64,000 nt of DNA from a phage. Shown here in pieces: positions 23,105-63,955 of the stretch. Under the pieces are notes generated by a model, which searched no databases, was not told the origin of the DNA, and saw only the letters and a list, made by a program, of their open reading frames with translations. Location: NCBI GenBank assembly GCA_033286805.1, contig GCA_033286805.1_4727.1; one strand, 5' to 3'. Each line of letters begins with the position of its first letter. Position 1 is the stretch's first letter. Both the position numbers and the translations under genes were made by a program.

Positions 23105-23136
23105 CCCTCTCCCAACCCGTAGGGGAAGGGAGAGGG
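23105..23136. terminator. Conserved stem-loop family member (CCCTCTCCC aa CCC gtag GGG aa GGGAGAGGG) between convergent genes
   Basis: Inverted repeat read directly; same architecture as the hairpins at 40118, 51964 and 63924. Confidence 0.55.
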
Positions 23137-23142
23137 AATATG

Positions 23143-24212
23143 TTAACCTAATGTCACTGTCGGTAAATCAGGATAAAGTTTCTTCAAGCCAGCCATTGTG
23201 GTGGTAGTTGTATAATTCTTACCCATCACAGCAAGAGATGCATATTTCCTGCTGCGGGAGAAAAGAGAATAGAACCCACTGGATGTTTCCATCCACATCG
23301 TGAGGAGTTCTGCATCGTTACCGTGATAGTTCGTTTTACCCCATCCGGGTTTAAACGCATCGGCAAAATCAATTAAACGCGAGGCTTCAGCGTCGTATTC
23401 TTTAAGGGTAATATACGATGGGATACGGTAGTTACGAAACAGTAACGTAATGAGTTCAGGGACAACACTGCGGGCACGTTCAGCCGTAATGAGTTCGGTG
23501 ATAACAGCAGCCGTACGGAAATCGCCGTTGAGACCAACGCTACTTAACGATTCCGCTAAGGTGGTCGCCATCGCTACTTTATCCTCCGCTGACCCGGAGT
23601 CATACAGACTACGTACATCGATGTAGTTGCCTGCTAATGCGGCTTGACGAATCAACGACGTGACAACCGTCCGGTTCGTCTTATAGTCGTTGTAACTGAA
23701 TTCGGTTCGCGTTTTCCCTTGATCGTCGAGATACCGATCGACAATCGTTGAAAGTTTATAATACTCATCGCCCGACATCAGACTATCGAGAAGCTTAACG
23801 TTTCCATCTTTATCAATAAGCTTCCCTAACGCGCCATTGGATTGCTGGTTAATGGTACTGTAAATCTGGTCTTTTACTTGCGATAGGATGTTATCGGTTG
23901 ACGATATATTCAGGCCAGTAACATCTTTGATCTTATTCATCAACGCGTTTTCATTCAGGGAGATTTTGCCTCCGCTGATATCGATGAAAGAATTAAGATC
24001 GCTTATGGAAATCAGGTTTCCTGTTAACGCCGATAGTGTACTATTGATACTGTTCGTAATACTGCTGCGAAAACTGGTTAACGCATCCGCCGCTGAAACA
24101 GCGGTACCGCTAACCGCTTTAAGGAGCGTATCGCGCCCTGTCGAAAAATCGCTGGTGATGGTTTTGATCTTGGACGTATCTATACTCGGCAGTTTGTCGT
24201 AAAGACTCATCA
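23143..24212 (-). CDS. hypothetical protein (about 356 aa)
   Basis: Start placed at the ATG at 24212 (MSLYDKL...) preceded by CAGGAGGA RBS; the ORF-track start at 24261 overlaps the upstream hairpin. Confidence 0.5.
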
Positions 24213-24249
24213 CGTCCTCCTGAAAAAGAAAAAAGAAATACGGCATAAA

Positions 24250-24275
24250 GCCTACCCACACAATGGTGGGTAGGC
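24250..24275 (-). terminator. Intrinsic terminator on the minus strand (GCCTACCCAC...GTGGGTAGGC, then T-rich tract)
   Basis: Perfect 10-bp stem; minus strand continues TTTATGCCGTATTTCTTTTTTCTTTTT. Confidence 0.6.
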
Positions 24276-24292
24276 TAAGATCAACATCGATG

Positions 24293-24850
24293 TTAAACTT
24301 CTTCGTTTTCTGAACCTAATGATTCAGCATCTGGATCGTCAACAGGAATTGTTGCATCAAAATACCGTTTCGTATGCGTGGTTGTATATCCTACGCTATC
24401 TGTGATGGAAATCGTAAACGTGACTTCCCTTGCACGGATTAAGCGTAGTTTATTCATGAAGTTACGGAACGGCATCGATCCCCGATTCAACTCCTTAATG
24501 ACGTTTCCCCGAATACTGGAAATGTCTTTATTCGTTTTATCAGGGTGTCGTTTCTTCACATCACGCATATGTCGGGTAATATACGAATTGAGCTGATTTG
24601 CGCCGATCCCTCTCTCCGTATAAATCTGCAACAGGAACTCCGTAAGGAAATCCTGTCTGCCCGTAGGCGTCCAGAAGTTGTTACCGTGGTTATAGTTAGT
24701 CGCTCGTCCTCGATTACTTTGAGGATTTTCATCATCGCTTTCGTCACGACGCTTAAGCGGATTAATGCGTGCGCGAAAAGAGACTTCGTTATATTTATCG
24801 ATCATATTACACCAGTGTATTGACTGAGTGCGAAGGTTAGGAGTTCGCAA
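24293..24850 (-). CDS. hypothetical protein (185 aa)
   Basis: ORF; overlaps the upstream ORF, so the true start is probably internal. Confidence 0.45.
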   Translation of the reverse strand: MRTPNLRTQSIHWCNMIDKYNEVSFRARINPLKRRDESDDENPQSNRGRATNYNHGNNFWTPTGRQDFLTEFLLQIYTERGIGANQLNSYITRHMRDVKKRHPDKTNKDISSIRGNVIKELNRGSMPFRNFMNKLRLIRAREVTFTISITDSVGYTTTHTKRYFDATIPVDDPDAESLGSENEEV

Positions 24851-25317: not shown

Positions 25318-25401
25318 GGCATCACCTATGTATCATTCTTGCAGGCATCAATGAAGCCATCACAAGAAGGTAACGTTATACGTCGCCTTCATGACTGTCA
25401 T

Positions 25402-25420
25402 CATGAAGGTAATATAGTCC
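25402..25420 (-). promoter_or_regulatory. Promoter-like conserved motif, copy 2 (catgaaggtaatatagtcc) in a divergent intergenic region
   Basis: Shares GGTAATATAGTC with the copies at 1711, 38520 and 51230. Confidence 0.4.
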
Positions 25421-25450
25421 TGTTATTTTTTTCAATACGGAGAATGTAAA

Positions 25451-26080
25451 ATGAGCGAATATGGTGTTGCCCCCGTAGATGATGAACCGCAAGAAGCACC
25501 AGATAAATTCGAGGTCCGTCTTGACGAAACCCGTAATATCCGCCAACGATTTATTCAACGCCTTGAAATGCTGTTAGATAGCGAATTCAAAGAATTTGAG
25601 CTTAATCACGGCGCTGATAACAAAGCCATCGTCGACGTCGAAAACGTCGACCGAATAGGTAAGCTGTTGTTGAAATCGTTGGGTGATAACGACAAAGTCG
25701 ACTTAACGTTGAAACGTATCAGTGCCGACCAGGCCATGAACGACAGCGCGCTGAAAACAGCACAAGCCCTAACCGAAACCATGCTGCGCCGCTTAGGTCA
25801 GATGGATCAACATCCTCTCGCAGCAGGGGCTGTTTATGAAGGCGAAGTCGTGAAGCCAGTCACGCCTGAAGAACGTGATCGTCGACTTGGTTTTGCGTCG
25901 TTGGAAGAGTTCGATAGCAAGGAGTTTTCACCAGGCGTTCTCATCCAGGGACGTGTCGAAGAAACCAGTGATGCTTTCTACGCTAGAATGGCTCAACTGA
26001 CGGCGTCGGTTCGTGAGGAGGTATCTCAGAAGATGGCTGCAGACCATCAGTCTTCGGAGGCGTCACACGAGGAGGAATAA
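25451..26080 (+). CDS. hypothetical acidic protein (209 aa)
   Basis: ORF with AGGA-type RBS; acidic C-terminus. Confidence 0.5.
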   Translation: MSEYGVAPVDDEPQEAPDKFEVRLDETRNIRQRFIQRLEMLLDSEFKEFELNHGADNKAIVDVENVDRIGKLLLKSLGDNDKVDLTLKRISADQAMNDSALKTAQALTETMLRRLGQMDQHPLAAGAVYEGEVVKPVTPEERDRRLGFASLEEFDSKEFSPGVLIQGRVEETSDAFYARMAQLTASVREEVSQKMAADHQSSEASHEEE

Positions 26081-26771
26081 AATAACTGAACCATTTTATT
26101 CCAAAGAACCGCATGAACATCACAGGTGCGTTAGAAAGTTCGATTGCTTCGTAAAGTTTGTCATAAGCCAGATCGGAATCAGGGATGGTTTCACTGATTC
26201 GTCTGGCTACAACCAATACGTTACAAATCGGATTGTCTTCTAACAGCATCTGATTGGGGAGGTGCCAGCGTTTGAAATCGTAAAAGAACATCGCATTATA
26301 CGTCTTACGGATTTCTGACGGATGCAGTGTGGCCGGATGACGGTAAATAATCTCAACGCTATCTTGCGCGCCGAGGTATTGCTGGATGCCTTCTTTTAAC
26401 GCAATTGCAGCATCTCCCACAAATTCAAACGGGTACGTATTCACATGAACCGAAAAATCCGGCGCAGCAATCCCCGTCAAGCGGTCTTTCATGTAGTCCG
26501 CTACCACGTAACATAATCGCCACATCAACTCCGTCGGAATGCATTTATCGAGAATGGTTTCATCGATATTTGCTAACGCACCCTTAAACTCTTCGTAAGT
26601 GTAAGTAACACCCGCCTGCTTCTCCGGCTCCAGGTTATAGGGTCGGTAATGCCATTTCTTCCCCCACTTTCTGATAGCCTCCGGATCCAACGTTGTTGCT
26701 ACCGCCATTTCGATATCAAGCAGCGCCTCGAGTTCTACGTACACCGTCACTAACGCCGCATTTCCAGTCAT
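25983..26771 (-). CDS. hypothetical protein (262 aa)
   Basis: Long ORF. Confidence 0.5.
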   Translation of the reverse strand: MTGNAALVTVYVELEALLDIEMAVATTLDPEAIRKWGKKWHYRPYNLEPEKQAGVTYTYEEFKGALANIDETILDKCIPTELMWRLCYVVADYMKDRLTGIAAPDFSVHVNTYPFEFVGDAAIALKEGIQQYLGAQDSVEIIYRHPATLHPSEIRKTYNAMFFYDFKRWHLPNQMLLEDNPICNVLVVARRISETIPDSDLAYDKLYEAIELSNAPVMFMRFFGIKWFSYFIPPRVTPPKTDGLQPSSEIPPHEPTPSVEPF

Positions 26772-27475: not shown

Positions 27476-27477
27476 AA

Positions 27478-28152
27478 TTAGCCCTCATCAAGGTTATTCT
27501 GGAGATGCATCGCGGTGAGGATAACGCCAACCGCCGAAACCGATTTTGCCTTGCTGTCTTCAGGGAGCTGCTCCAAGCTTACGGTACCTGTTTCTAACAG
27601 CATGCGGTTCATCGCGTTGAACTTCTTATCGTCACCACCACGAGCCTGCATCAGCTCTCGGTTCACGTTCGGCATCGACCGTCCTAACGTCGCTTGCATT
27701 TCCGGCTGACTCCAAGTGGAACCCTTACTTTCACCCGTCGGCTGATTGGTGAGTTGGTCCTTGGTGTTGTTGTTTTTCGGAATCGATATTTTAGCACTCA
27801 ACGTTTCGGCTTGTCGGCGGTTTGGAATCAGGTACAATCTGGTTGGGCGGTCACGAAGCACCAATTGCCCTGTTTTCTGGTCGGTGAGATAAATGCGCTG
27901 GAAGAAGGGGAAACCGTATTTCTTACCAACTTCCAACGCACGTTTTATCGTCACCTCGTTTTTGTTCATGTTGGGTACCCAGATGGGTAGAATCTCTTTC
28001 TTATCCCGACATAAACGCATATAGGCATCAAACGTCTCATCATCGATTTCAGCAAAACGTTTTTTGTAAATAGCGTAAGTCGGGCTCGATTCACCCACCA
28101 GGTCTTTGATATACCCAAGAATGAATTTTTCTGCTGCAGCGCGGTTGGACAT
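27478..28152 (-). CDS. hypothetical protein (224 aa)
   Basis: Long ORF. Confidence 0.5.
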   Translation of the reverse strand: MSNRAAAEKFILGYIKDLVGESSPTYAIYKKRFAEIDDETFDAYMRLCRDKKEILPIWVPNMNKNEVTIKRALEVGKKYGFPFFQRIYLTDQKTGQLVLRDRPTRLYLIPNRRQAETLSAKISIPKNNNTKDQLTNQPTGESKGSTWSQPEMQATLGRSMPNVNRELMQARGGDDKKFNAMNRMLLETGTVSLEQLPEDSKAKSVSAVGVILTAMHLQNNLDEG

Positions 28153-30478: not shown

Positions 30479-31321
30479 ATGCATAAATTTACCATTCCTG
30501 AAGACCCGATTACACTGCAGACCCTTTGGGATTCACATCGTGCTTTATCAATGGAAGGCTTTGCGCAAGACTTCGCTTCACTTACCGCAGTAACGAACCT
30601 TCGTAGTATGTTTACCAACGGTAAGAAGTTTGTTACCGATTGGCTTAAGAAACGTGATGTGACGGTTTATCCTAAAGTTTTCGATGACCTCGACACCATC
30701 TTTAGCAACAACGCTTACAGCAATCTCATTGGGTATCGTGCTTTTATTCCGAATGGTTTAAATGCGCCGATGTCAGATTATGTTGTCGCTTTAACTCAGA
30801 GTCTGGATAGCGTAATTGGCACCATCCTACCCGATTTGGATAAGTTGACCGTAACGTGCGCTAAAGCCGTCAACGACGTTAACTTCCGCCGTAGTAGTGG
30901 TATGGCTCAAACGCTACCTAAAAACGATCCAGAGAACGTTCTAGAGACGTTACGTGCGATGTTCAAACAAGGGACGGTAACACAGACCACTGTAGGCCGT
31001 GCATATAAGAACGAAGATGATATTCGTCAGATCGGAAAAGATCTGGATGCTTCCCGTATCCGTGCGCTTGACGTTAATCCTAAAGACGTGAAGAAGGCAA
31101 TCGAACGTTTCATGGAGGTAGCTGACCGTTTAACCGAAATCCTGGTTCAAGACTACAACGAAGGTGCGGTGAGCAACGCGATGATTCGCGATATTAGCGA
31201 CGCTATCTACCAAACAGCCAAGCAGGCTGAACTGTACGCGTTTCTCGTGAACGCTTTGGCTGAGGCGATCATCGCATATAACGATACCTGGGACGCTGTT
31301 AAGAAGAACGCGAAAAAATAA
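30479..31321 (+). CDS. hypothetical protein (280 aa)
   Basis: Long ORF followed by a hairpin. Confidence 0.5.
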   Translation: MHKFTIPEDPITLQTLWDSHRALSMEGFAQDFASLTAVTNLRSMFTNGKKFVTDWLKKRDVTVYPKVFDDLDTIFSNNAYSNLIGYRAFIPNGLNAPMSDYVVALTQSLDSVIGTILPDLDKLTVTCAKAVNDVNFRRSSGMAQTLPKNDPENVLETLRAMFKQGTVTQTTVGRAYKNEDDIRQIGKDLDASRIRALDVNPKDVKKAIERFMEVADRLTEILVQDYNEGAVSNAMIRDISDAIYQTAKQAELYAFLVNALAEAIIAYNDTWDAVKKNAKK

Positions 31322-31329
31322 CATAATAA

Positions 31330-31365
31330 CCCACCCTACTACCCCGTTAAGGGCGGTAGGGTGGG
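31330..31365. terminator. Stem-loop (CCCACCCTAC...GTAGGGTGGG) between convergent genes, followed by TAAGGTTTATTTG
   Basis: 10-bp stem with inner CCCC-GTTAA-GGG. Confidence 0.55.
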
Positions 31366-31372
31366 ATAAGGT

Positions 31373-31804
31373 TTATTTGCCGTATAGTTGTACCACTCGT
31401 TGTGTCGTAGGAACGCAGACTCTTACCAGAAGCTTTTTAATCTCCTGACGAATCGTTGCTTTATCATCATAATAAAGCCATGGCGGAACGCGTTGCATTA
31501 TGCACTGCACGGCTTCATCGTAGTTCGCCGTCTCATTAAGTAACGTCTCACTATCCAGATCTTTCCATGCAGTAATACCAAGTCGCGCAGCAAACATCAA
31601 CGCTGAAACCGACTCAGCTATCTCCAATCGCTCATTCATATCCGCAAGACCTTTTAGCATGATGTAATTATCATCATGCTGATGTAAGGTGCCATACAAA
31701 CTTCCGAAGAGAAGTATACGTTTAGCTTTTGCGGTTAAGAGGAACGACAGGAGAGCGTGTTTCAACGGTTGTTTCTCACGTTCTACCTGTTCGACCATCA
31801 CCAT
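31373..31804 (-). CDS. hypothetical protein (143 aa)
   Basis: ORF, 3-nt gap to the upstream RNase H gene. Confidence 0.5.
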   Translation of the reverse strand: MVMVEQVEREKQPLKHALLSFLLTAKAKRILLFGSLYGTLHQHDDNYIMLKGLADMNERLEIAESVSALMFAARLGITAWKDLDSETLLNETANYDEAVQCIMQRVPPWLYYDDKATIRQEIKKLLVRVCVPTTQRVVQLYGK

Positions 31805-33990: not shown

Positions 33991-35331
33991 ATGATTAGTA
34001 TTTTTGGTTTTTATACGTACAAAGGGTACGCTAATAACCACCCAAAAACCACGGCGAAATTCGGTGAGTTCAGTCAGCACAGTGCTACGTTCAGTCGCGA
34101 AATCGGCATCTATACCAACACGGCGTACGCACGTACGACCTTATTAGTGTTGAATGCCGAAAACGAAGCTGGTGAAGCACAAACGCTGAATGACGACACC
34201 GCAGGCCGTATTCTTCAGGTTGGTCAATGGTTGCTGGAAAAAGCCGCATCGGGCGAAATCCAAGATGACCGAGACCAAGTTATTGGCTACCTAAAAGACG
34301 ACTTCACAACGTATTTGGATTCTATCGACATCCCGACACCCACCACCGATGGGAACGTCTATCTACCGGCGTGGATCAGTTTCAAGATAACCGCCACGGG
34401 TGATGTTGTCAAGATATGGCTGTCTGATAGCGTATTCCAAAGTCAATATCCAAAATACGAATACGAAGTCGTTCCTCCTGTTCCTAAGGATCAGTTAGAC
34501 ACCTTCTTCGAAGATCTGGCAACGTTGAAGAAACTGGTTGACAGTCGAAGCAGCGAGAAACTGACCGAAGAAATCAACGAGGTGCGCGACCAATTCCCAG
34601 ACACACAATTGTGGACGAAAACCTATAAAGCGTACGATTACACCGACGATTCGAAGTACATTGATACCGATTGGACGGTGATTATCTACGGTGCAGCAGG
34701 TAACAATATTGATAATATCAAGGAGTTCCTGCAAAACTGGATTCTTAGCAATAGCACGCATGGACGCCCAGACTGGGAAATCGTTCTGCCGGATCTTTTT
34801 ATCCCGACAGAACACATCTTCATTCCAATCTGGAACCGCCACAGCGCTCCGGAGATGACCAATCAGGCACGTATCTATAGTCCCATCTTCGATGATTCGT
34901 TGATGGATACCTACCTGAAAAACTTTGCTGATGGTTACGGCGAAACCGCCGAAGTCCGTAAGTCGCTTCAAGCGGTGCCGACGTTGTGGCGCTCGATCGG
35001 TTTCTTAAGTGTTGGTAACTCACGTAACCGTGATGGTAAACTTAAGTTCTACGACCGCTGGCCACAATACGCGCTCATCAGCACAACCAGCATCGACATT
35101 AACCGTATCGACGATGCGACACGTGAATTCATCACCTTCACTTACGAAATGCTGAAACTGGCAGAATCGCTGACCGAAGACGACCCGGTACCGTTGGGTT
35201 ATAGTCGTGTTACGCGTGGTAGCAATAGCTTCTTAGCGAAAAGCCATAACGATGTTCAGTATCTCTTCTTAACAAAAGAAGCGTTCCTGAAGAAAATGCC
35301 GGATGAAGCCGACACGCCTGTTGGAGGTTGA
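33991..35331 (+). CDS. hypothetical protein (about 446 aa)
   Basis: Start placed at ATG 33991 with GAGGA RBS (ORF-track start 33955 would overlap the divergent gene). Confidence 0.5.
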   Translation: MISIFGFYTYKGYANNHPKTTAKFGEFSQHSATFSREIGIYTNTAYARTTLLVLNAENEAGEAQTLNDDTAGRILQVGQWLLEKAASGEIQDDRDQVIGYLKDDFTTYLDSIDIPTPTTDGNVYLPAWISFKITATGDVVKIWLSDSVFQSQYPKYEYEVVPPVPKDQLDTFFEDLATLKKLVDSRSSEKLTEEINEVRDQFPDTQLWTKTYKAYDYTDDSKYIDTDWTVIIYGAAGNNIDNIKEFLQNWILSNSTHGRPDWEIVLPDLFIPTEHIFIPIWNRHSAPEMTNQARIYSPIFDDSLMDTYLKNFADGYGETAEVRKSLQAVPTLWRSIGFLSVGNSRNRDGKLKFYDRWPQYALISTTSIDINRIDDATREFITFTYEMLKLAESLTEDDPVPLGYSRVTRGSNSFLAKSHNDVQYLFLTKEAFLKKMPDEADTPVGG

Positions 35332-35960
35332 TTATGGCTGTAACACGCATGACGCCAAGTCCCGGTGCGGTCGGGGTATTCACAGTATCAGCGCCGTTTT
35401 CCGTTGGTGCGTCAACGCTATATACCGTTACAGCGTTACGCCGATTCAGCGAAGTCATCGGTAGTGGAATCGATCTATTTACGGAACTGTACGAACCGTT
35501 ATCAATAGACAAATCCACTTTCGAAGCGCATCTCGAAGCGAATGCTTATCTCGTCACGTTGCAACCGGATTATGGTGCGCCCGTACTGGTACCTGATACG
35601 TATATCACGTCGTACCCAAAGAACGATTCCTTGCGGTATCGTCGCATTATTCTGGGTATCGATTTCGGGCCTCTTCCTCCCGGTCTTGACCTTTCGTATT
35701 TAACAACGATATTGAAAGGTAAGGCCAGTGATATTCTTGGTGTCGAACCTGAAGTTAAAACGATGGAAATCACTCTCGATGATACCGTTACTCAGGAACA
35801 ACATCAGATAAACGAAGCCCGTCGTCAGGCTGCGATAAAAGAGCGGGATACCATTTACGCACGCTGTGAAACGCAAGAGAAGCAGATAACGGCTTTACTT
35901 GCAACCCAAAAGCAACTTATCAAATTGCTTCAAGACGCCGGTATCAATCCGACACCTTAA
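35328..35960 (+). CDS. hypothetical protein (210 aa)
   Basis: ORF overlapping the upstream stop (ATGA). Confidence 0.5.
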   Translation: MIMAVTRMTPSPGAVGVFTVSAPFSVGASTLYTVTALRRFSEVIGSGIDLFTELYEPLSIDKSTFEAHLEANAYLVTLQPDYGAPVLVPDTYITSYPKNDSLRYRRIILGIDFGPLPPGLDLSYLTTILKGKASDILGVEPEVKTMEITLDDTVTQEQHQINEARRQAAIKERDTIYARCETQEKQITALLATQKQLIKLLQDAGINPTP

Positions 35961-35966
35961 CATATT

Positions 35967-35998
35967 CCCTCCTCCTTCCCTGTTGGGTTGGAGGAGGG
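35967..35998. terminator. Conserved stem-loop family member in inverted orientation (CCCTCCTCC...GGAGGAGGG) between convergent genes
   Basis: Reverse complement is nearly identical to the hairpins at 51964 and 63924. Confidence 0.55.
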
Positions 35999-36070
35999 TT
36001 ATGCCGTCAAGCAAAAAAAAAAAAATGATAGTCACAGGCTCTCCAATGAAGGAGAGCCGTGACCGTCAGT

Positions 36071-36772
36071 TTAAGATGCAGATAATCTCGCGTACTTCTG
36101 GCGAACATGGTTCTTACGGCGAACTTCGTCGTCCTCGTCACGCCATTCGAGGTAAGCAACGAATCGACGTAACTGCGCCGCCGTCATCGTTGACGAGCGG
36201 TCTTCTACGTCTAGAACAACGTAACGAACATCACCAACACCATCGCAATCAACGTAACTGAATACCAAAAGACCATCACCGTATTCAACGATGGTAACTT
36301 CGAATCGTTTATTGAACAAATAAAACAGTTCCGATTCAATGATCATCGGAATGACGCATAAATCAGCACGATTGAGGATTTCCATCATCACCCGTAACGC
36401 GCGAGGAGTATGGCGAGCGAACTGGTCGTTAAAACGTTGTTTCATCGCTTGTTCCACGCCATCTGTTTTTGTTCCAAACCAAGGACGTATTACAGATTTC
36501 GGTGGTGTGAGACGAAAGCGATATGCTTGTATAAACAACAGAATATCAGCGACGTTAGGAAATTCTTCCTGGTCTTCGTATATCTTGCGGATAATATCCG
36601 GAATCGTAACCATCAAGTATTTCTTATCGCCTCCCACTTTCTCGAGATTAGCAATATGTCCTTCTACCATAGGCTGGTAAACGAAATTATACCAATGACG
36701 GTATCTTTCGGTGCGTTGGTAGTTTGGGATAAAATTAAGAATAATACTCACTGCGCGTTTTAATGGGTTCAT
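36071..36772 (-). CDS. hypothetical protein (233 aa)
   Basis: Long ORF. Confidence 0.5.
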   Translation of the reverse strand: MNPLKRAVSIILNFIPNYQRTERYRHWYNFVYQPMVEGHIANLEKVGGDKKYLMVTIPDIIRKIYEDQEEFPNVADILLFIQAYRFRLTPPKSVIRPWFGTKTDGVEQAMKQRFNDQFARHTPRALRVMMEILNRADLCVIPMIIESELFYLFNKRFEVTIVEYGDGLLVFSYVDCDGVGDVRYVVLDVEDRSSTMTAAQLRRFVAYLEWRDEDDEVRRKNHVRQKYARLSAS

Positions 36773-37787: not shown

Positions 37788-37840
37788 AAGAAAAAACGAT
37801 ATAAAGCAAGGTCCTCTGATATCAGAGGACCTTGGATCAA

Positions 37841-39694: not shown

Positions 39695-39804
39695 AAACAC
39701 TGTGTGCATTAGTGTATGACGAGAAATCGTCGAGGCCCCCGTCTTCACGAGGGCCAACACCTATGCATGATTATTCATCGTCTGTTAAACAAAAGGTTAT
39801 AAAC

Positions 39805-40113
39805 ATGAGCAATTTGAACGTTGAATTTACTTCAACAACGCCTGTCATGAATGGTGTTGGCACTGAAACCAAAATCGTATTAGAACCCATTCCAGGGTTA
39901 CGCGATCTCGGTGATTTTTATCCACTGATGCCGCGTATACGGAAGGCCTTAAACAGTATCGATCTTGATTCCAATAAAGATTTCCAACACGATACAGAAA
40001 ATACCGATCATGTATTGCTGCCATCAGGGATCGCAAAATTCACCTACACGCAAACATTGAAAGCCTCCGATGGTGAAATCCGTCGTTTTATCGTTGAAGT
40101 AGAAAGCGCATAA
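39805..40113 (+). CDS. hypothetical protein (about 102 aa)
   Basis: Start placed at ATG 39805 (MSNLNVEF...); ORF track begins at 39712. Confidence 0.45.
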   Translation: MSNLNVEFTSTTPVMNGVGTETKIVLEPIPGLRDLGDFYPLMPRIRKALNSIDLDSNKDFQHDTENTDHVLLPSGIAKFTYTQTLKASDGEIRRFIVEVESA

Positions 40114-40117
40114 AAAC

Positions 40118-40149
40118 CATCCTCCCAACCCGTAAGGGAAGGGAGGATG
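40118..40149. terminator. Conserved stem-loop family member (CATCCTCCC aa CCC GTAA GGG aa GGGAGGATG) between convergent genes
   Basis: 9-bp outer stem, A-A internal loop, inner CCC/GGG closed by GUAA (GNRA-type) tetraloop. Confidence 0.6.
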
Positions 40150-40166
40150 AAATATGCCGTTAAACG

Positions 40167-40808
40167 TTATTCAACAAACCCTGCATTCAACAGATTGTCG
40201 TAAACACGATTAGCGACATCAACAGGAGAATGTGTGTTACTGGTATCTATACGCAGCGTTTTCGCGTCGCCGAGATAGTCCATAAAATCCATGTAACGAT
40301 AACGTCGTTTATTGAATGTCGCTTCATCGATGTTATCAAACATCTGATGTTTAGCGTGACGAACACGGAACCGTCTTAAATACGTAGGATAGTCAATATC
40401 CAGATAAACATAGTAAGACGGCATGATAATCGACGGTAGGTTCGGCAACAACGCGTCAAACAGCTTAACGTTGGCATCATTAACCTGGTAAACATACGTC
40501 GAAGCAATCGAACGATCGCTAAGCACAGTTTTCCCTTCGTTAAGGGCTGGATGAATCACCTTGTTGAAGAGATGATTACGTTGCGACATCATCGCCAACA
40601 GCTCGGTTTCCGGATCGAATCTGTTTGTTGGTGTTTGGTCTTCCAGGATAAGTTTACGAATGGCTTCTCCGTAGAGAGTACCACCGGGTTCACGTACGAC
40701 ACAGACATTGTTTAAACGGCTGTGTAAAGACGAGATAACCGAACTCTTTCCTGAATAATCCAAACCTTCAATAACGATATACTTATTACGAGACATTCCC
40801 CGCTCCAA
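40167..40808 (-). CDS. tmk: thymidylate (dTMP) kinase
   Basis: KYIVIEGLDYSGKSS P-loop and REPGGT...GE.IR lid match E. coli Tmk (KYIVIEGLEGAGKTT...REPGGT); true start probably the internal MSRNKY. Confidence 0.8.
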   Translation of the reverse strand: MERGMSRNKYIVIEGLDYSGKSSVISSLHSRLNNVCVVREPGGTLYGEAIRKLILEDQTPTNRFDPETELLAMMSQRNHLFNKVIHPALNEGKTVLSDRSIASTYVYQVNDANVKLFDALLPNLPSIIMPSYYVYLDIDYPTYLRRFRVRHAKHQMFDNIDEATFNKRRYRYMDFMDYLGDAKTLRIDTSNTHSPVDVANRVYDNLLNAGFVE

Positions 40809-46040: not shown

Positions 46041-47129
46041 ATGAGCGACCTGGCAACAGACAATCGCACAAAAGGGAGTCAGCTAGCTCCAGACAACAAC
46101 GTAAGCGTTTTCCGTATCTTTGCCTTGGGTACTGTTGCTGCCGACTTTTCCAATAAAAGTCTGGAGGAAGATCCTAACCAAACGCTGGAGGTCTTTCTTG
46201 ATGAGATGATGTCAGGCGCTGATGGGAAAGTTGAAGCGGCGGGAAGCGTTAAAGAAGTCAGTGCAACAGACGCTCAAGGAAACAGCTATACGGCGAAAGC
46301 GGCAACAACAACCAGCGTACAGTGTTACTGGTTACCCTTCGGCAGTAACCGGATGACAGCACCTAACTTGAGGAAAGGTCAGCGTGTGGTGGTTTGGCGT
46401 ACCGCCGATGAAGAACAGCTCTACTGGCAACCCAAAGGAGGGGATAGCGAGCTGATGACCATGGAATCGGTTATCCTCACCGTCAGCGCACGTCCTAGCG
46501 CTAAGAAGGACCGTAAATCGATTTCAACGGAAGACTGCTATTACCTAATGGTTGATACCTTCCTCAAGAAGGCGGTTATCGGCACCAGCGCACAGCTTGG
46601 TGAAGTTACCCAAGTTTACATGGAACTTAATCTGGACGAGGGTTACCTACAGGTTGCGGACAGCGTCCATCAAAATCTGCTGTTACTCCATTTCGTTGAA
46701 CATATGCTGCGTTATCAAAACCAGGATGACAGCATCATCGACGTGACAAAAAAGAACATCACATTCCAGTGCGAGGATACGCTCAAAGCAATCGCTAAGA
46801 ACGATATCCGAATGAAAGCAAAAAACATTTATACCGAATGTGAGAACTTCGAGCGTACCAGCAAAACAGAAAGCGTTACGAGTCAGAATGTTTCTTTGAA
46901 GTGTGATCGTTACACCGCGCAAGTATCAGGACAGACCATGTTTAAATGTCCGAATACGGTATTCACTGGGGCTGTAAGCTTCACAGGTGAAGACGGAAAC
47001 ACGATGACGTTGAATGGGAACTTCATACACGTCGCAGGCTCTTGGCGTTCACCAACCGGAACAAACGTATACACCCACGATCACGGCGGTGTAGACCGTG
47101 GCAGCGGTCGTACAGATCCGTTCCAATAA
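46041..47129 (+). CDS. hypothetical protein (362 aa)
   Basis: Long ORF with AGGAG RBS, followed by a hairpin. Confidence 0.55.
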   Translation: MSDLATDNRTKGSQLAPDNNVSVFRIFALGTVAADFSNKSLEEDPNQTLEVFLDEMMSGADGKVEAAGSVKEVSATDAQGNSYTAKAATTTSVQCYWLPFGSNRMTAPNLRKGQRVVVWRTADEEQLYWQPKGGDSELMTMESVILTVSARPSAKKDRKSISTEDCYYLMVDTFLKKAVIGTSAQLGEVTQVYMELNLDEGYLQVADSVHQNLLLLHFVEHMLRYQNQDDSIIDVTKKNITFQCEDTLKAIAKNDIRMKAKNIYTECENFERTSKTESVTSQNVSLKCDRYTAQVSGQTMFKCPNTVFTGAVSFTGEDGNTMTLNGNFIHVAGSWRSPTGTNVYTHDHGGVDRGSGRTDPFQ

Positions 47130-47149: not shown

Positions 47150-47184
47150 CCTCCTTCCCTAGCCGTCAAGGCCGGGGAAGGAGG
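47150..47184. terminator. Bidirectional stem-loop (CCTCCTTCCC...GGGAAGGAGG, loop tagccgtcaaggcc), near-identical to 14-50
   Basis: Perfect 10-bp arms; A-run on the left and T-rich on the right give U-tracts on both strands. Confidence 0.6.
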
Positions 47185-47199: not shown

Positions 47200-47637
47200 T
47201 TAACGCGTTGCATTCTGGATGATTTCTTTTCCGATCTTAACCAAAGCGGGTATCTGTACAGCGGTTGCGCCTCGATGACGAAACGCGGTCGTTAACGCGG
47301 TATCGATACTCACCGCACGTCCGTGAAGACGATCGAAATAGACTTGAGTGATTGCGGTAGCGTAATCCTTTCGCTGTTTCTTGGTTTGGCTCAACAGCGC
47401 CGCACTATGACTAACGATGAAGTAAGCGATTAAGAAGAACGCCGCTGACCGCGAACCAGGTAGAAAACCTTGTCGCTTAGGGAGCATCTCACAATCGCGA
47501 ACACTATTATCGTTCGCCAGCTCTTCCATATCAACACAGCATAATTTTGCATAGGTGTGGAGATAGTGGGTAAAAGTTGAATTTAACATTTTTCTTTCCT
47601 CGATTACAATGAGTTCAATGTATAGCTTAAACGTCAC
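47200..47637 (-). CDS. hypothetical protein (145 aa)
   Basis: ORF, last gene of a minus-strand small-gene operon. Confidence 0.45.
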   Translation of the reverse strand: MTFKLYIELIVIEERKMLNSTFTHYLHTYAKLCCVDMEELANDNSVRDCEMLPKRQGFLPGSRSAAFFLIAYFIVSHSAALLSQTKKQRKDYATAITQVYFDRLHGRAVSIDTALTTAFRHRGATAVQIPALVKIGKEIIQNATR

Positions 47638-48977: not shown

Positions 48978-48997
48978 GGGGATACCGCGGTATCCCC
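48978..48997. promoter_or_regulatory. Perfect 20-bp palindrome GGGGATACC-GC-GGTATCCCC
   Basis: Read directly; related GGATACCC-TG-GGGTATCC at 62562-62579, both about 31-33 nt upstream of a minus-strand start codon. Confidence 0.45.
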
Positions 48998-49905: not shown

Positions 49906-50080
49906 CAGTTAGCTCCTAAATAGATCTACAACGAACTTTCGATGGAAGGGAGTATGTTTCCCTTCCTTGGGTTCGTTTATTGCGTTACGAAGCTTTACAG
50001 CTTGCGTAAACCACAACGGTTCCATTGTTGATTACCTCAACATCATCCTGGTCCGTTTGATCGCAAGTTTGGTGTCCGCA

Positions 50081-51150: not shown

Positions 51151-51229
51151 CTAAAAAGATCCTCTGTTTTTCACGTTAATTAAACAACGTATTGATTTCT
51201 ATTTGACACAATACGAACATTGTACGTAT

Positions 51230-51257
51230 CTATCACTTAGGTAATATAGTCGTGAAA
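51230..51257 (-). promoter_or_regulatory. Promoter-like conserved motif, copy 4 (ctatcacttaggtaatatagtcgtgaaa)
   Basis: About 80 nt upstream of the start at 51150; shares extended identity with copy 3. Confidence 0.45.
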
Positions 51258-51351
51258 GGATTTGCATTAAAGCAAGGGTTTTGTTTTTTAAGAAGGGATG
51301 GATTTAGAAGAGGTGTTTCAAGGAAGGTAAACGAGGATAGGTATTTTGATT

Positions 51352-51367
51352 TAAGTAAGTAAGTAAG
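51352..51367. repeat. (TAAG)x4 microsatellite
   Basis: Read directly: taagtaagtaagtaag. Confidence 0.8.
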
Positions 51368-51370
51368 ATG

Positions 51371-51516
51371 TTATCTGTATTTGTTAAAAGTGTATTGTCT
51401 AAGTTATCTTGTTTATCTTAGGTTATGTCTTATTGTTTAATCGTTTTATCTTTGTATGTTTAAGTTGTTTTATTTATCTTGTTTGTTTATTTAAAAGTAA
51501 GTTAATAAGCTTATCT
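51371..51516. repeat. Six direct TTATCT(T) repeats at roughly 30-35-nt spacing in a C-depleted T-rich tract
   Basis: Copies at 51371, 51404, 51413, 51446, 51474 and 51511; C is rare on the plus strand between about 51260 and 51520. Confidence 0.6.
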
Positions 51517-51733
51517 TCAAAACAATGGATAACATGTGTTTACCACCTTAACGGTAACACATGTCATCTGTGCATTACACTCCGCTATCACTTCGTTACA
51601 TGCTTATATGTTGGATAACTCAAAAAACATTTGTGATACTCTTCTTCACGTTGTTCATCAGAGTATCTCGTCTATACTCATTGCATTCGTATACGACATA
51701 ACCGTTATACGCTAACGCTACGCTTATAGCTTG

Positions 51734-51800
51734 ATAACTCTAAGGATAAAAACATAAACTCGCTTCGCTCGTTTAGTTTTTCTTTTTCTTAGAGTTATCC
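51734..51800. repeat. 12-bp inverted repeat GATAACTCTAAG ... CTTAGAGTTATC separated by about 43 nt
   Basis: Arms at 51734-51745 and 51789-51800; further GGATAAC-type motifs at 51527 and 51613. Confidence 0.55.
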
Positions 51801-51963
51801 TGTTGCTCGTCTCTAAAGGACTTCGCTCCTCCCCCGTCCCCCGAAGGGGCCGAGGTCGTGGAAATTTTACTTTCCAAATACATTTACAACATCTGTAAAC
51901 TTTTACTCCAGGTACTTAATCTTATCATTAGAAATTATAAAAGAGAATAAACACAAACATAAA

Positions 51964-51995
51964 CCTTCCTCCAACCCAACAGGGAAGGAGGAAGG
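51964..51995. terminator. Conserved stem-loop family member (CCTTCCTCC aacccaacaggg aa GGAGGAAGG) at the 3' end of gene 52012..52905
   Basis: Near-identical to the reverse complement of the 35967 hairpin and to the 63924 hairpin. Confidence 0.55.
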
Positions 51996-52011: not shown

Positions 52012-52905
52012 TTAATCAGCGACGTTATAACCGAATACTGCTTTACCGTAGGTGTGAGTACCGTTAGCTAACGACAGCACCAGCACATGGTTGTACGTAG
52101 CGTTAACGCCCTTGTCAGTAGACTCGGTGGTAGCACCGTTATAGACAAAGGTAGCCGTTTGCAGATTGGCTTTCAGTTCATTGATGATATCATCACTTAC
52201 GCCGGTCTGCTCTTTGATCAGGGTGGTCAGGTTACCTGCTAAGCTTGCATCGATATTTACTTCGTTGCCAGTAATAGCTTGTAAACCTGGAGCGTAAGTA
52301 CTGAAGTCTAACGGATAGGTTAACAGACGTGCTGACGTTTTGGTACCATCGCCTTCATCAACGTAGGTTAAGTTACCCAGGTTGGTAACCTTGATGATGT
52401 TAGCCAGATCCAGCGTGGTGTTATAAACTTTAACTTGAACAGAGCCATACCACGCCAACGAATCTTCTTTGGCTTCCAGGGTGATCGTCTGGATACCTGA
52501 CTGATCAAAGGTAACCTGAGTAGCTAACGTTTCGGCTTTGATGTCTTTCGTTTTATCCAGGAACTTCTCACCGGAAGGCGTGATCATACCGTAGCGTTGA
52601 GCTACAAGGTCAACCACATCACCGATGGTGGTGTTCGCCTCAACGTTAACACGTACAGCGATCTTCTGGAACCACTTAGCCAGATCCAGACGATGGTAGG
52701 TGACATCGCGGTTATTGAAGTAAGGGGTACCTTCACCAGGACTAAGTGTTAAAGTTGCTTCTGGAGCAGAAGGATTCTTTTCTTTAAGGACGTATTTAAG
52801 GTCGGTGTATTTAAAGTTGGCACCAGTGTCGGCGTTGAGCTGGTTAATCTCATCAACGATAAGTTGCCAAGGTGTTTTTAAAGTAAGCGATACTTGAGCT
52901 GTCAT
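52012..52905 (-). CDS. hypothetical protein (297 aa), paralogous to 53048..53590; possibly virion-associated
   Basis: Shared segments with the neighbouring gene (TYHRLDLAKWF ~ YYDRLALSEVF; LAWYGSVQVKV ~ LVYTGTLQVAL). Confidence 0.55.
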   Translation of the reverse strand: MTAQVSLTLKTPWQLIVDEINQLNADTGANFKYTDLKYVLKEKNPSAPEATLTLSPGEGTPYFNNRDVTYHRLDLAKWFQKIAVRVNVEANTTIGDVVDLVAQRYGMITPSGEKFLDKTKDIKAETLATQVTFDQSGIQTITLEAKEDSLAWYGSVQVKVYNTTLDLANIIKVTNLGNLTYVDEGDGTKTSARLLTYPLDFSTYAPGLQAITGNEVNIDASLAGNLTTLIKEQTGVSDDIINELKANLQTATFVYNGATTESTDKGVNATYNHVLVLSLANGTHTYGKAVFGYNVAD

Positions 52906-53047
52906 TTTCTACCTCTATGGTTGTTACATCACTCTCAAAAGATGTAAGTGTTTACAGAAATAAGTATATTTTATATTAAATGTGAATAATATGGAGAACG
53001 ACTCCGAATCTCCTTTTCGACCATCAAAAATCAGAGGACACACAATC

Positions 53048-53590
53048 ATGGCCTTAGACTTTAACAAAGCAGCGAAATCCCTTCTGCTTGATCTTATCAA
53101 CACCAAAGCAACCCGTGCACTGGCCGAACAAGAACTGCAGTTCGGTACCCCGGGGGCATCTTCCGAACATGAAAAGAACACCGTTATTCAGCTGGACGCT
53201 GCGCCTGAAGCAGAAAACCTGCAGGGTAGTCAGCAGTTCTACTACGATCGTCTGGCTCTGTCCGAAGTTTTCGCTGATGTAACCGGCGACGTTACTTTCG
53301 AACTGCCGCACGGTACCGACAGCATCCAGGCTTCTGAACTGGTAAGCAAGCTGGTCACCAAATTCGGCCTGGCTTCCCTGAACGGTGAAATCAAAGAAGA
53401 AACCTTCCAGCTGTCTGCTGGTACTGTTGGTCAGGTAACTCTGAGTGCGATCGATAATGGTCTGGTATATACCGGCACTCTGCAGGTTGCTCTGACCTAT
53501 GCAGCAGCACCGAAAGACCAACTGGCAACTGTTCTGGCGGATAACGTAGCTGATGGCTTCGTGAAACCGACCGTTAGCGTTGTTGGCTAA
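53048..53590 (+). CDS. hypothetical protein (about 181 aa), strongly host-optimised codons, paralogue of 52012..52905
   Basis: Start placed at ATG 53048 after GAGGA RBS (ORF opens at 52982); codon choice almost exclusively CTG/CCG/GGT/ACC/GAA. Confidence 0.6.
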   Translation: MALDFNKAAKSLLLDLINTKATRALAEQELQFGTPGASSEHEKNTVIQLDAAPEAENLQGSQQFYYDRLALSEVFADVTGDVTFELPHGTDSIQASELVSKLVTKFGLASLNGEIKEETFQLSAGTVGQVTLSAIDNGLVYTGTLQVALTYAAAPKDQLATVLADNVADGFVKPTVSVVG

Positions 53591-53792: not shown

Positions 53793-53824
53793 CCCCTCCT
53801 CATCCGTTATTGGGTGAGGAGGGG
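53793..53824. terminator. Stem-loop CCCCTCCTCA...TGAGGAGGGG followed by TCTTATACGTCTTTAT
   Basis: 10-bp GC-rich stem between convergent transcription units. Confidence 0.55.
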
Positions 53825-53887: not shown

Positions 53888-54523
53888 TTATTCAACACTG
53901 AAACCGTTCAAACAGATAGCTTCGTAACGCTTACGTTCACGACGTTTACGCGCCTGCCAACCGTAAATGAACTTCTCGTCTTTCTCACGACGTTCAGCTA
54001 ATTCGATGTAATAGGTGCTCTGCATGTCCAGCATCGCATCGATGAGATAATCCTTACCAGTTGCGCCACGCTTAGCGATGTAGGCATCAAGAGCTGCCAG
54101 TGATTTGGGACCCATTGCACCATCAGCATCAATATCTTTCCAGTAAGTTTGACGGTTGTTCATGACGTTCAGGTAACGCTGAAGGTTCTTAACCGCAACC
54201 GTTTTACCTGCATTGATACCCAGGTCAAAGAGACGGTCAGCCAAGAACACAGAACGTTTCATGACTTCGTCAAGCTTCATCTTATCCCAGAAGTGGGTCT
54301 TGTAGATAAAGAACGCCATTTCCGTGGTAAGGTTACGCATGTTACCGTCCCACCCGAATTTCGTTTTCAGCGTGGTTTTGTACTGATCCGCAAGCGCTTT
54401 CGTAATGCCGTGGTTTGTACATTTTCCGCTGTCGTCTGGGTCATCAACATACCCGCCTTCAACATCGGTTTTGTCGCGAATGATGAATTCGCAGGTAAAA
54501 TCTTTTTCAGTAATCTTAGCCAT
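53888..54523 (-). CDS. Endolysin, GH108-type N-acetylmuramidase with peptidoglycan-binding region
   Basis: N-terminal EGGYVDDPDDSGKCTNHGIT matches the GH108 signature E-GGY...D.GG.T..GIT; length and C-terminal basic region fit a PG-binding module. Confidence 0.7.
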   Translation of the reverse strand: MAKITEKDFTCEFIIRDKTDVEGGYVDDPDDSGKCTNHGITKALADQYKTTLKTKFGWDGNMRNLTTEMAFFIYKTHFWDKMKLDEVMKRSVFLADRLFDLGINAGKTVAVKNLQRYLNVMNNRQTYWKDIDADGAMGPKSLAALDAYIAKRGATGKDYLIDAMLDMQSTYYIELAERREKDEKFIYGWQARKRRERKRYEAICLNGFSVE

Positions 54524-59804: not shown

Positions 59805-59808
59805 ACGA

Positions 59809-60324: not shown

Positions 60325-60352
60325 ATCCTATCGAAAAATAAAAAGAAGGAAA

Positions 60353-60369: not shown

Positions 60370-60375
60370 CATCCG

Positions 60376-62529: not shown

Positions 62530-62561
62530 GATGCGCCCTTTACAAGTTGTTAGTAAGTATG

Positions 62562-62579
62562 GGATACCCTGGGGTATCC
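62562..62579. promoter_or_regulatory. Palindrome GGATACCC-TG-GGGTATCC upstream of the tail fibre gene
   Basis: Related to the palindrome at 48978-48997; downstream TTACTA element shared. Confidence 0.45.
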
Positions 62580-62633
62580 TGTGTTAACAGCGGTAAAATA
62601 TTACTGTAACTATAAAATAAGGGGGCCTCTCCC

Positions 62634-63914
62634 ATGTATACATTGGTAAAAACTTACGGATTACCCGTAGGTTCTGGCACGGCCTGGACAGCGCTTGAGG
62701 CGGGTGAAAGTGTCCTGAGTACGTTGTTCTCAACGTATCAAAAACTCAAGATCCAGGTCCATGAAAGCTATGCTGACCAGCAACAAGTTATTGATCTGTA
62801 CGCGTTCCAATCCGAGCTTCAAAACAGCAGTGATACGCTCAATGCGTGGCTGAAGGCGAAATCGGACGCACATACTAACCTCCGTGGACAGCCAGGCGAG
62901 CTGTCGATTAAAACCCACAAGCTTTATTGTCACGACGTTATTACAGTAGGCTTTCTCCCTAAAGTCGGTAATAGCGGCTATCATCCGAGCAACGCGATCC
63001 CTGAGTCGGAACGCACTGATATCCTGTTGACGAAAGCGAATACGAACTACGAAAATATCGGTAAGCATTGCTTGTTTACCGTAGGTGGTTATGTTCATCC
63101 TCACGTTTACGGTAAAGACGTCGGTGTCTATATCCAGGGCGGGTTCAAGACGGCACAGCGTAGCCAAGAAAACGATATCGGCATGATTGATTTTAGCCGT
63201 ATCGGGAGTTTGGAAATCCATGCCATCACAGAAGAGATGATTGCTGATTCCACGAAGCTCTTGCCGTATAAGGACGAGATGTACTTGCGGTTACCGCGCA
63301 AGGTCGCCGAAGATGAAACCGTCGCGCTGGTGTTCGGGGGATATTTACATCTTCTTGACGATTGTTACACGATCGTTAGTGACACGACAGCAAAAATAAA
63401 CTGCATTAACATGTTTCTTTATGAAAGATACTTCCGTTCCCGCAAATACCTTGATCTAACGTCTCTTGGTATTCTGTTGAACGAAGAAGACCCGCAGTCC
63501 GATATTGTTGCCAATCGTTTATTGTCCGATAAAGCATTAAAAGCGTGGGTGACGCATCCTTGCAGTTTCTGGGTGTATATCAAAGCAACATCGATTCAGG
63601 TTACGCAAGAACCTTTACCACGAAGTGGTGTACCAGGACAATATTTCTTAGGTAAGAAACCGGAAGGACTGATTCGAGCCGATCTTGGTGAGTTACCGGC
63701 TTACGTGCAGACCTATGAAAAACCGTTATGGGTACTTCACTCGCGCTGGGGACTTCGTAAGAACATGTTGTTTGAAAACACATTGTACAAGCACACCCGC
63801 GTTAAGCGGCTTAACGATACGCCTTATCTTCACCAGGTCTGGTTGGAAACGCACGCGACGTTGCAGACAGTACACAAGCTCGAATTGATCGATTCCAGTC
63901 AGAAAAACAAATAA
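62634..63914 (+). CDS. hypothetical protein (426 aa)
   Basis: Long ORF followed by a conserved hairpin. Confidence 0.55.
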   Translation: MYTLVKTYGLPVGSGTAWTALEAGESVLSTLFSTYQKLKIQVHESYADQQQVIDLYAFQSELQNSSDTLNAWLKAKSDAHTNLRGQPGELSIKTHKLYCHDVITVGFLPKVGNSGYHPSNAIPESERTDILLTKANTNYENIGKHCLFTVGGYVHPHVYGKDVGVYIQGGFKTAQRSQENDIGMIDFSRIGSLEIHAITEEMIADSTKLLPYKDEMYLRLPRKVAEDETVALVFGGYLHLLDDCYTIVSDTTAKINCINMFLYERYFRSRKYLDLTSLGILLNEEDPQSDIVANRLLSDKALKAWVTHPCSFWVYIKATSIQVTQEPLPRSGVPGQYFLGKKPEGLIRADLGELPAYVQTYEKPLWVLHSRWGLRKNMLFENTLYKHTRVKRLNDTPYLHQVWLETHATLQTVHKLELIDSSQKNK

Positions 63915-63923
63915 CCAAACATA

Positions 63924-63955
63924 ACCCTCCTCCAACCCGTAAGGGAAGGAGGAGG
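63924..63955. terminator. Conserved stem-loop family member (CCCTCCTCC aa CCC GTAA GGG aa GGAGGAGGG)
   Basis: 9-bp outer stem, GUAA tetraloop on an inner CCC/GGG stem; immediately after the stop at 63914. Confidence 0.6.

Follow-up and report, generated by a model that had tools for sequence, protein, structure and literature searches.

Two-tier hairpins followed by a TATG box as probable transcription terminators in a Goslar-like jumbo phage

The closest described counterparts of the elements reported here come from the phages phiKZ and 201phi2-1. In phiKZ, ONT-cappable-seq yielded 61 terminators that share the motif BCCYCCCCHWWDGGGRRGGBYTTATKYYGT, in which TTAT comes directly after a pyrimidine/purine hairpin (Putzeys et al. 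2024, PMC10914365), and six bidirectional terminator regions lie between convergent genes (PMC10914365). Terminator motif A of 201phi2-1 (n = 59) resembles the phiKZ motif, 15 of the 132 mapped transcription termination sites in this phage are bidirectional, and eight of its terminators were active in vivo in a reporter trap (PMC11512511). Here, a family of intergenic stem-loops with polypyrimidine 5′ arms and polypurine 3′ arms is described in contig GCA_033286805.1_4727.1 of GenBank assembly GCA_033286805.1, a stretch of phage DNA of 64,000 nt that was analysed over its full length (the window).

A 6.1-kb piece of the window shares 92.6% identity with Escherichia phage vB_EcoM_Goslar (hereafter Goslar) and had no other match in the phage collection, while the window as a whole maps to approximately 200.2–237.3 kb and then 1–28 kb of Goslar. 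Judged by this sequence match, the window phage is a close relative of Goslar, a chimallivirus, which is a 237-kb phiKZ-like nucleus-forming jumbo phage. The stem-loops are a lineage-specific, two-tier variant of the terminator class already mapped in phiKZ-like phages, and as such are largely explained and, in Goslar, partly annotated. By analogy with that class, they very probably terminate transcription in a hairpin-dependent manner, as signals for the multisubunit RNA polymerases (RNAPs) of the phage itself, and represent the Goslar-lineage version of the phiKZ/201phi2-1 motif. Their anatomy, non-random excess, gene-end location, box directionality, covariation and identity of design with phiKZ are direct observations.

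An earlier note on this DNA had listed "at least eight" intergenic sites. All eight are found in the sequence, with the palindrome of the last one lying at 63925–63956 instead of 63924–63955, and an exhaustive search for perfect inverted repeats in the window gave these and two further members, at 2637–2664 and 53793–53824. The ten elements are as follows, with TATG (CATA where it is read on the minus strand) marking the conserved box that flanks the stems.

2–56, both strands: bidirectional element of the tagccgtcaaggccg subfamily, stem-loop 14–50, with an 11-bp outer stem and an inner GCC/GGC stem; boxes TATG 53–56 (+) and CATA 2–5 (TATG on the minus strand); RNA fold −28.2 (+) and −27.3 (−) kcal/mol; identical to Goslar 200229–200265, at the convergent junction of genes 218/219.
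2627–2664, minus strand: unidirectional element between co-directional minus-strand genes, stem 2637–2664, a simple 12-bp stem with a 4-nt loop (ACCTCCTTACCC-acat-GGGTAAGGAGGT); minus-strand TATG box at 2627–2630 (tgacggCATAaaaagt).
23097–23142, both strands: bidirectional two-tier element, stem-loop 23105–23136, CCCTCTCCC-AA-CCC-GTAG-GGG-AA-GGGAGAGGG; boxes CATA 23097–23100 and TATG 23139–23142; 17 nt past the stop of plus-strand gene 20946–23087 and 6 nt from the stop of minus-strand gene 23143–24261; RNA fold −24.3/−24.9 kcal/mol.
31322–31365, both strands: bidirectional element with a third interior variant, stem-loop 31330–31365, CCCACCCTAC-t-ACCCC-GTTA-AGGGC-g-GTAGGGTGGG; box on the minus-strand side only (CATA 31322–31325), the plus side reading ataaggTTTATTT; convergent junction of 30479–31321 (+) and 31373–31804 (−); ortholog Goslar 232609–232644, annotated "putative transcriptional terminator".
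35961–36003, both strands: bidirectional two-tier element with the interior reversed (TT-CCC-TGTT-GGG-TT), stem-loop 35967–35998; boxes CATA 35961–35964 and TATG 36000–36003 (ttATGCCGT); convergent junction of 35328–35960 (+) and 36071–36772 (−); loop TGTT, TGAT or ATTAC across relatives.
40109–40156, both strands: bidirectional two-tier element, stem-loop 40118–40149, CATCCTCCC-AA-CCC-GTAA-GGG-AA-GGGAGGATG; boxes CATA 40109–40112 and TATG 40153–40156 (aaaTATGCCGT); convergent junction of 39712–40113 (+) and 40167–40808 (−).
47150–47184, both strands: bidirectional element of the tagccgtcaaggccg subfamily, with TATAG replacing TATG on both flanks (gCTATAcaa ... atTATAGttt), a variant that is symmetric on the two sides (CTATA...TATAG); convergent junction of 46041–47129 (+) and 47200–47637 (−); ortholog Goslar 11186–11220, annotated as a terminator.
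51958–51995, minus strand: unidirectional two-tier element between co-directional minus-strand genes, stem-loop 51964–51995, plus-strand interior AACCC-AACA-GGGAA; box on the transcribed (minus) side only, CATA 51958–51961, the plus-side flank gagagatt having none; 16 nt past the stop of minus-strand gene 52012–52905.
53793–53824, both strands: bidirectional element, CCCCTCCTCA-tccgttattggg-TGAGGAGGGG; plus-side flank tcTTATAcg, with exact TATG on neither side; convergent junction of 52982–53590 (+) and 53888–54523 (−); ortholog Goslar 17603–17637, annotated as a terminator, with stem differences among relatives compensated.
63920–63962, both strands: bidirectional two-tier element, stem-loop 63925–63956, CCCTCCTCC-AA-CCC-GTAA-GGG-AA-GGAGGAGGG; boxes CATA 63920–63923 and TATG 63959–63962 (aaTATGCTGT); 10 nt past the stop of plus-strand gene 62634–63914; ortholog Goslar 27746–27777, annotated as a terminator.

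The Goslar GenBank record marks four of the ten orthologs as putative terminators. Chance origin of the hairpins was rejected by shuffle controls. In a scan for perfect arms of at least 8 bp with a GC content of at least 50%, in which pyrimidine-first hairpins were counted, the window gave 10, whereas 60 dinucleotide shuffles averaged 0.13 (maximum 2). The whole Goslar genome, a genome-wide motif search having been proposed earlier as a check, gave 28 where 20 shuffles averaged 0.4, with only six hairpins of the opposite polarity. Coding sequence makes up 93% of this genome, and yet all but three of the 28 (25) fall between genes. The core motif CCTCCAACCCNNNNGGGAAGGAGG had three matches with 0.00 expected. 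All ten window elements are wholly intergenic, and 92% of the window is coding.

The placement of the elements follows the ends of genes. All but one of the window's nine convergent junctions carry an element (eight in total), and the other two elements (2637 and 51964) lie between co-directional minus-strand genes, which bears out the earlier observation that most sites sit between convergent genes (seven of the eight then listed, eight of ten overall). Approximately 18 of the 20 convergent junctions in Goslar have a hairpin, 14 by an automatic rule and four by inspection (83251, 134586, 189103 and 232609), compared with two of 20 divergent junctions. Hairpins at convergent and rarely at divergent junctions are the distribution expected of terminators, which would be bidirectional where transcription units collide. 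The sole convergent junction in the window without a hairpin is that of 25451–26080 (+) and 25983–26771 (−), where the open reading frames (ORFs) overlap by 98 nt, as do Goslar genes 237/238; given this overlap, one of the gene calls may be wrong, or termination may differ there. Seven further gene-end hairpins in the window do not have the pyrimidine-first polarity (6983–7008, 20907–20927, 24249–24276, 36037–36058, 37807–37834, 48978–48997 and 49944–49966), three of them being purine-first. The one at 24249 keeps the downstream box on its transcribed strand (cggCATAa), while those at 6983 and 37807 have T-richer tails and are annotated as terminators in Goslar.

A conserved box, wTATGCYGT, follows the stem in the direction of transcription. 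When the Goslar flanks are aligned on this box, its G falls 5 to 8 nt past the stem, most often 6. In Goslar, 43 of the 56 transcribed flanks have TATG no more than 12 nt 3′ of the stem, over a background of 2–3%, and the exact tetranucleotide is present in 13 of the 18 transcribed flanks in the window. The box is directional: at co-directional Goslar sites, it is found in 17 of 18 flanks on the transcribed side versus 3 of 18 on the other. Conversely, 21 of the 26 intergenic TATGCYG boxes in Goslar have a hairpin ahead of them. Symmetric elements are flanked by CATAww before the stem and wwTATG after it. Boxes on both sides would make an element bidirectional at convergent gene ends, and a box on one side would make it unidirectional between co-directional genes.

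There is no U-tract in the usual sense, as had been remarked for several of the sites. The first 8 nt after the stem contain a mean of 3.6 T, and a T run of at least 4 occurs in only three of the 56 Goslar flanks. A standard scan for a hairpin plus T tail across 22–42 kb of the window detected none of the four elements there. The wTATGCYGT box, which the earlier note had overlooked and which explains the missing U-tract, takes its place.

The 5′ arms of the ten window elements are at least 80% pyrimidine in all cases and 100% pyrimidine in seven. The majority form is two-tier, with a 9–11-bp outer stem (all-pyrimidine 5′ arm, all-purine 3′ arm) enclosing a symmetric 2×2 internal loop AA/AA, a CCC/GGG inner stem and a closing tetraloop (GTAA, GTGA, AACA, AGCA and others); the AA/AA loop of one strand becomes UU/UU in RNA of the opposite strand. 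Sites 14 and 47150 form a second subfamily, in which the interior is tagccgtcaaggccg, and one-tier simple versions are found at window 2637 and at several places in Goslar, for example CCCTCCC-cgaa-GGGAGGG. A shared design with two interiors, as first described, applies to most sites. It does not extend to 31330–31365, whose arms are 80% pyrimidine (CCCACCCTAC) and whose interior taccccgttaagggcg is a third variant, and at 35967–35998 the described AACCC..GGGAA interior is present in the reverse orientation (ttccctgttgggtt).

Being a perfect Watson–Crick palindrome, the stem folds equally well in RNA from either strand; the window elements have the same RNA fold in both orientations, at −21 to −28 kcal/mol. 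When 21 distinct two-tier copies were aligned, 98.8% of the cells were paired, and seven of the nine outer pairs have changed on both sides (C–G to U–A), with no one-sided changes and hence no G·U; the copies are paralogs, so that these covariation counts are not independent events. Pairing falls to 49–65% in a control with slid partners. A G·U pair in the RNA of one strand is a C·A mismatch in that of the other, so a hairpin that must form on both strands requires strict Watson–Crick pairing. At orthologous sites, arm changes between relatives are likewise compensated, for example at Goslar 93445 and 17604. The hairpin structure is under selection.

The interior of the elements is inverted from one relative to another. 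Goslar, the window and two relatives from the IMG/VR database (182.9 kb and 237.5 kb; 90–98% identical) were compared, and the 14-nt interior is exactly reverse-complemented, with arms and flanks unchanged, at four orthologous sites (Goslar 4149, 48107, 63715 and 174267). Flip sites include window 40118–40149, where the interior is flipped in relative c182k, and 2637–2664, where the 4-nt loop reads ACAT in the window and ATGT in the ortholog at Goslar 202853–202880. These flips are recurrent, hairpin-mediated small inversions in genomes that are 90–98% identical. Small hairpin-loop inversions have been described for non-coding hairpins of chloroplasts. The shared feature is an interior between inverted arms that is reverse-complemented in close relatives while arms and flanks are kept; the differences are that the inversions here affect phage terminators and recur at no fewer than four sites in such similar genomes. 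Because relatives differ by flips and co-directional sites show both interior orientations, the orientation of the interior is unconstrained relative to transcription. This argues against strand-specific recognition of, for example, a GNRA loop, and a constrained orientation with such a loop on one strand was rejected. As a separate observation, AACCC...GGGAA lies on the plus strand in 13 of the 15 two-tier copies in Goslar, although most genes are on the minus strand and relatives differ freely in interior orientation.

The polymerases that would read these signals are encoded by the phage. Window genes for beta-like subunits of phage multisubunit RNAPs are found at 12492–14027 and, split by an intron, at 7009–8232 and 8607–11816. 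Sigma-70-like promoters are not enriched in the window (30 observed versus 34.9 expected). The earlier suggestion that the phage polymerase is involved is probably right, as is that of bidirectional termination, which fits both the placement at convergent junctions and the match to the phiKZ motif.

The proposed signal has two parts. The first is a very stable G+C-rich stem (approximately −21 to −28 kcal/mol), all pyrimidine in its 5′ arm and all purine in its 3′ arm. In the second, which stands where a U-tract would be expected, a short A/U spacer leads to UAUG(CYG), whose G lies 5–8 nt past the stem. The nascent hairpin may form once the polymerase has arrived at the A/U-rich spacer and UAUG. 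Only a weak hybrid, for example AAUAU, would then remain, and a pause at U–G could let the hairpin invade the upstream part of the hybrid, with RNA 3′ ends left on or beside UAUG. The logic would be that of intrinsic termination, with a specific box substituting for the U-tract. Multisubunit RNAPs have a general preference for pausing at Y(−1)G(+1) with a G-rich upstream hybrid edge, and this preference is one potential source of the pause; the other would be a TATG-binding pocket of the phage polymerase itself.

In phiKZ, the late promoter core TATG is necessary for transcription by the non-virion RNAP, with the G as the start site (PMC4666361), and recognition of this core on the non-template strand falls to the beta-like subunit gp123 (PMC12809450). 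The terminator box holds the same tetranucleotide, and Goslar encodes homologs of gp123 (E = 4e-53) and gp55. The window beta-like ORF 12492–14027 was considered as the gp123 ortholog and rejected (E = 0.38; a different RNAP subunit family), and the gp123 homolog sits elsewhere in the Goslar genome. It is conceivable, though on balance doubtful, that the UAUG box is read during elongation by the same polymerase pocket (gp123 in phiKZ) as the late-promoter core, which would then double as a pause and release signal; this link between promoter and terminator is offered as a hypothesis and not as a finding. With the G as incoming nucleotide, the RNA 3′ end would lie 5–7 nt past the stem, which is the geometry of hairpin-driven termination, and the G-rich purine 3′ arm would be at the upstream hybrid edge, which may explain the strict arm polarity. 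In a stronger form of the hypothesis, polymerases would terminate and re-initiate at the same TATG, coupling neighbouring transcription units, and re-initiation at convergent junctions would make antisense RNAs such as those reported for phiKZ-like phages. The phiKZ promoter TATG is not associated with a hairpin and its G is the start site, whereas the terminator TATG follows a stem. Promoter P119L of phiKZ, in a divergent intergenic region, has no stem upstream of its TATG; promoter and terminator TATGs are therefore distinct sites, and a general identity of the terminator box with the late promoter was rejected.

Several points weigh against reading the elements as terminators. Transcript ends at these sites in the window phage are inferred by analogy, and long-read 3′ ends alone cannot separate termination from exonucleolytic trimming to a protective hairpin. 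Thirteen of the 56 transcribed Goslar flanks have no exact TATG, and window elements 47150 and 53793 have TATAG or TTATA. A simple terminator model also fails to account for two invariant features of the two-tier form, its AA/AA internal loop and its CCC/GGG inner stem.

The best-surviving alternative, which appears improbable, is that the hairpins primarily protect or process RNA 3′ ends, so that transcription would end elsewhere, 3′ exonucleases would trim the RNA as far as the stable hairpin or an endonuclease would cut there, and the element would set mRNA half-life. RNase III prefers roughly two helical turns, and a processing hairpin of the T7 type is expected to offer it a double-stranded stretch of at least about 20 bp with little interruption. 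The elements, with a 9–12-bp outer stem and a 3–4-bp inner stem on either side of an internal loop, are well below this length. The great stability of the stems (−21 to −28 kcal/mol) and the lack of U-tracts do fit a protective role, and the 3′-end mapping in phiKZ does not by itself distinguish termination from trimming. However, protection leaves the conserved, direction-specific 3′ box unexplained, because trimming would remove it, and in a reporter trap the related terminators of 201phi2-1 do halt transcription (PMC11512511). The elements may still contribute to protection or processing in a secondary way.

Translational control is less likely still. In this scenario, the GGAGG of the 3′ arm would be a Shine–Dalgarno (SD) sequence masked by the anti-SD CCUCC arm, regulating a downstream start or titrating ribosomes. 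The resemblance of the arms to anti-SD and SD sequences, noticed from the outset, is real: GGAGG is present in seven of the ten 3′ arms in the window, and the arms of 2637–2664 correspond exactly to the anti-SD of the E. coli 16S 3′ end (ACCUCCUUA) and the canonical SD (UAAGGAGGU). The box also includes an ATG 4–7 nt past the purine arm, and at four of the 18 co-directional Goslar sites (49776, 117670, 152277 and 166927) this ATG is the annotated start of the next gene, with the purine arm at the SD position, so that read-through transcripts would have their SD locked in the stem. Yet no gene start in the window has any of the ten elements in the 15 nt ahead of it. The ATG of convergent sites opens frames of only 3–6 codons, which run antisense to the neighbouring gene. 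Mapped phiKZ transcript ends show the same polarity and box, and a G-rich purine arm without long G runs often contains GGAGG from composition alone.

Just as remote is a repeat of the repetitive extragenic palindrome or miniature inverted-repeat transposable element type, or a DNA-level protein-binding or cruciform site, spread through the genome without a role in transcription. The near identity of the 14-nt interior across many copies would suit it, as would the element at Goslar 93445, which departs from its orthologs over its whole length as though the commonest copy had replaced it by conversion, the hairpin-mediated inversions of the interior, and the mild plus-strand bias of interior orientation in Goslar (13/15). 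Against it, all ten window sites are orthologous to Goslar positions with no presence/absence polymorphism, the location of the copies follows gene 3′ ends and, through the box, the direction of transcription, and the arms differ between copies solely by compensated changes. Recognition of the hairpins by ChmC, an RNA-binding protein of Goslar and PhiPA3, is unsupported, since enhanced crosslinking and immunoprecipitation placed its peaks close to start codons and yielded no motif.

As terminators, the elements have practical uses. A hairpin followed by wTATGCYGT can be used to annotate where transcription units end in enterobacterial chimalliviruses, Goslar-like phages among them, where standard terminator finders overlook most of the sites, the Goslar record marking only four of ten. 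The elements are also compact candidate bidirectional insulators for engineering E. coli jumbo phages. A box that contains the promoter core motif, together with strict arm polarity and the lack of wobble pairs, offers a handle on termination by sigma-less phage multisubunit RNAPs, for which no biochemical characterisation was apparent in the literature examined.

Other features of the window were noted as well. An 813-nt stretch at 51151–51963, which adjoins terminator 51964 downstream on the minus strand, has no ORF longer than 69 aa; it is 93.6% conserved in Goslar (14921–15814), where it is unannotated, and has no Rfam match at gathering score. It could contain a non-coding RNA or small genes. 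A group I intron at 8147–8609 (Rfam Intron_gpI match 8244–8611, minus strand) interrupts a beta-like RNAP gene (PHROG 3148); this 463-nt insertion is absent from Goslar, in which Goslar_00228 is uninterrupted. A second group I intron, at 12063–12447 (minus strand) and 12424–12517, is common to both phages (Goslar 211817–212245), and beside it Goslar has approximately 1.5 kb that is missing from the window phage (Goslar_00230, similar to phiKZ ORF179 and HNH-like), a difference that looks like the presence/absence of a homing endonuclease. The two group I introns were the only Rfam matches at gathering score in the window, with none at the hairpins.

The elements resemble bacterial intrinsic (Rho-independent) terminators in having a stable G+C-rich hairpin just past the stop codon with a weak A/U-rich segment next to it, in the use of one palindrome for both strands at convergent genes, and in the distance of 5–8 nt from the stem to the presumed 3′ end. 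They differ in the lack of a U-tract, the conserved specific box and the strict arm polarity, and the polymerase is presumably that of the phage.

With the terminators of phiKZ and 201phi2-1, they share the G+C-rich hairpin with pyrimidine 5′ and purine 3′ arms, the intergenic location at gene 3′ ends, the TTAT(G)YYGT directly after the stem in place of a U-tract, the bidirectional CATAA...TTATG flanks at convergent genes and a chimallivirus host genome with its own multisubunit RNAPs. The same scanner found 16 pyrimidine-first hairpins and one purine-first hairpin in two 50-kb pieces of phiKZ, where the convergent junction of genes 031.1/032 reads cagCATAA-GCCCTCCC-attgc-GGGAGGGC-ATTATG. Termination has been mapped in phiKZ and 201phi2-1, whereas the Goslar-like elements are known here from sequence. 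The stems of phiKZ are single, 7–9 bp long, with loops of 4–5 nt (often UUCG). Convergent copies in the Goslar lineage are mostly two-tier, with a 9–11-bp outer stem, the invariant 2×2 AA/AA or UU/UU loop, CCC/GGG and a tetraloop, and at least two further interior variants exist besides this common interior. The published single stem with a 4–5-nt loop (HWWD) is matched only by 2637–2664; the other nine elements have 12–16 nt between the outer arms (a second-tier mini-hairpin), and the family is accordingly filed as a lineage-specific variant and not as an exact match to the phiKZ motif.

Beyond these phages, gene-end hairpins followed by TTATGC(Y)G, with looser arm polarity, occur in Salmonella phage SA002, which belongs to a different enterobacterial jumbo lineage. 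Besides Goslar and two close relatives, an IMG/VR scan with a 20-nt core picked up four small contigs unrelated to them, among which only L019 was informative; L010 and L024 (68% GC) look like chance matches and were rejected, and L021, an unidentified contig, has a convergent-junction hairpin followed by a T run. L019 (IMGVR_UViG_3300042934_000386) is a metagenomic contig of a jumbo phage like Salmonella SA002 and Erwinia Ea35-70, with no nucleotide similarity to Goslar, and at 4936–4971 it carries a two-tier element, CTACTCTACCC-AACCCGTGAGGGAA-GGGTAGAGTAG then TTATGCTG, at a convergent junction. The same layout in phiKZ, in SA002 and in the SA002-like contig indicates that the grammar of hairpin plus box is family-wide, and the two-tier form is a variant present in enterobacterial members.

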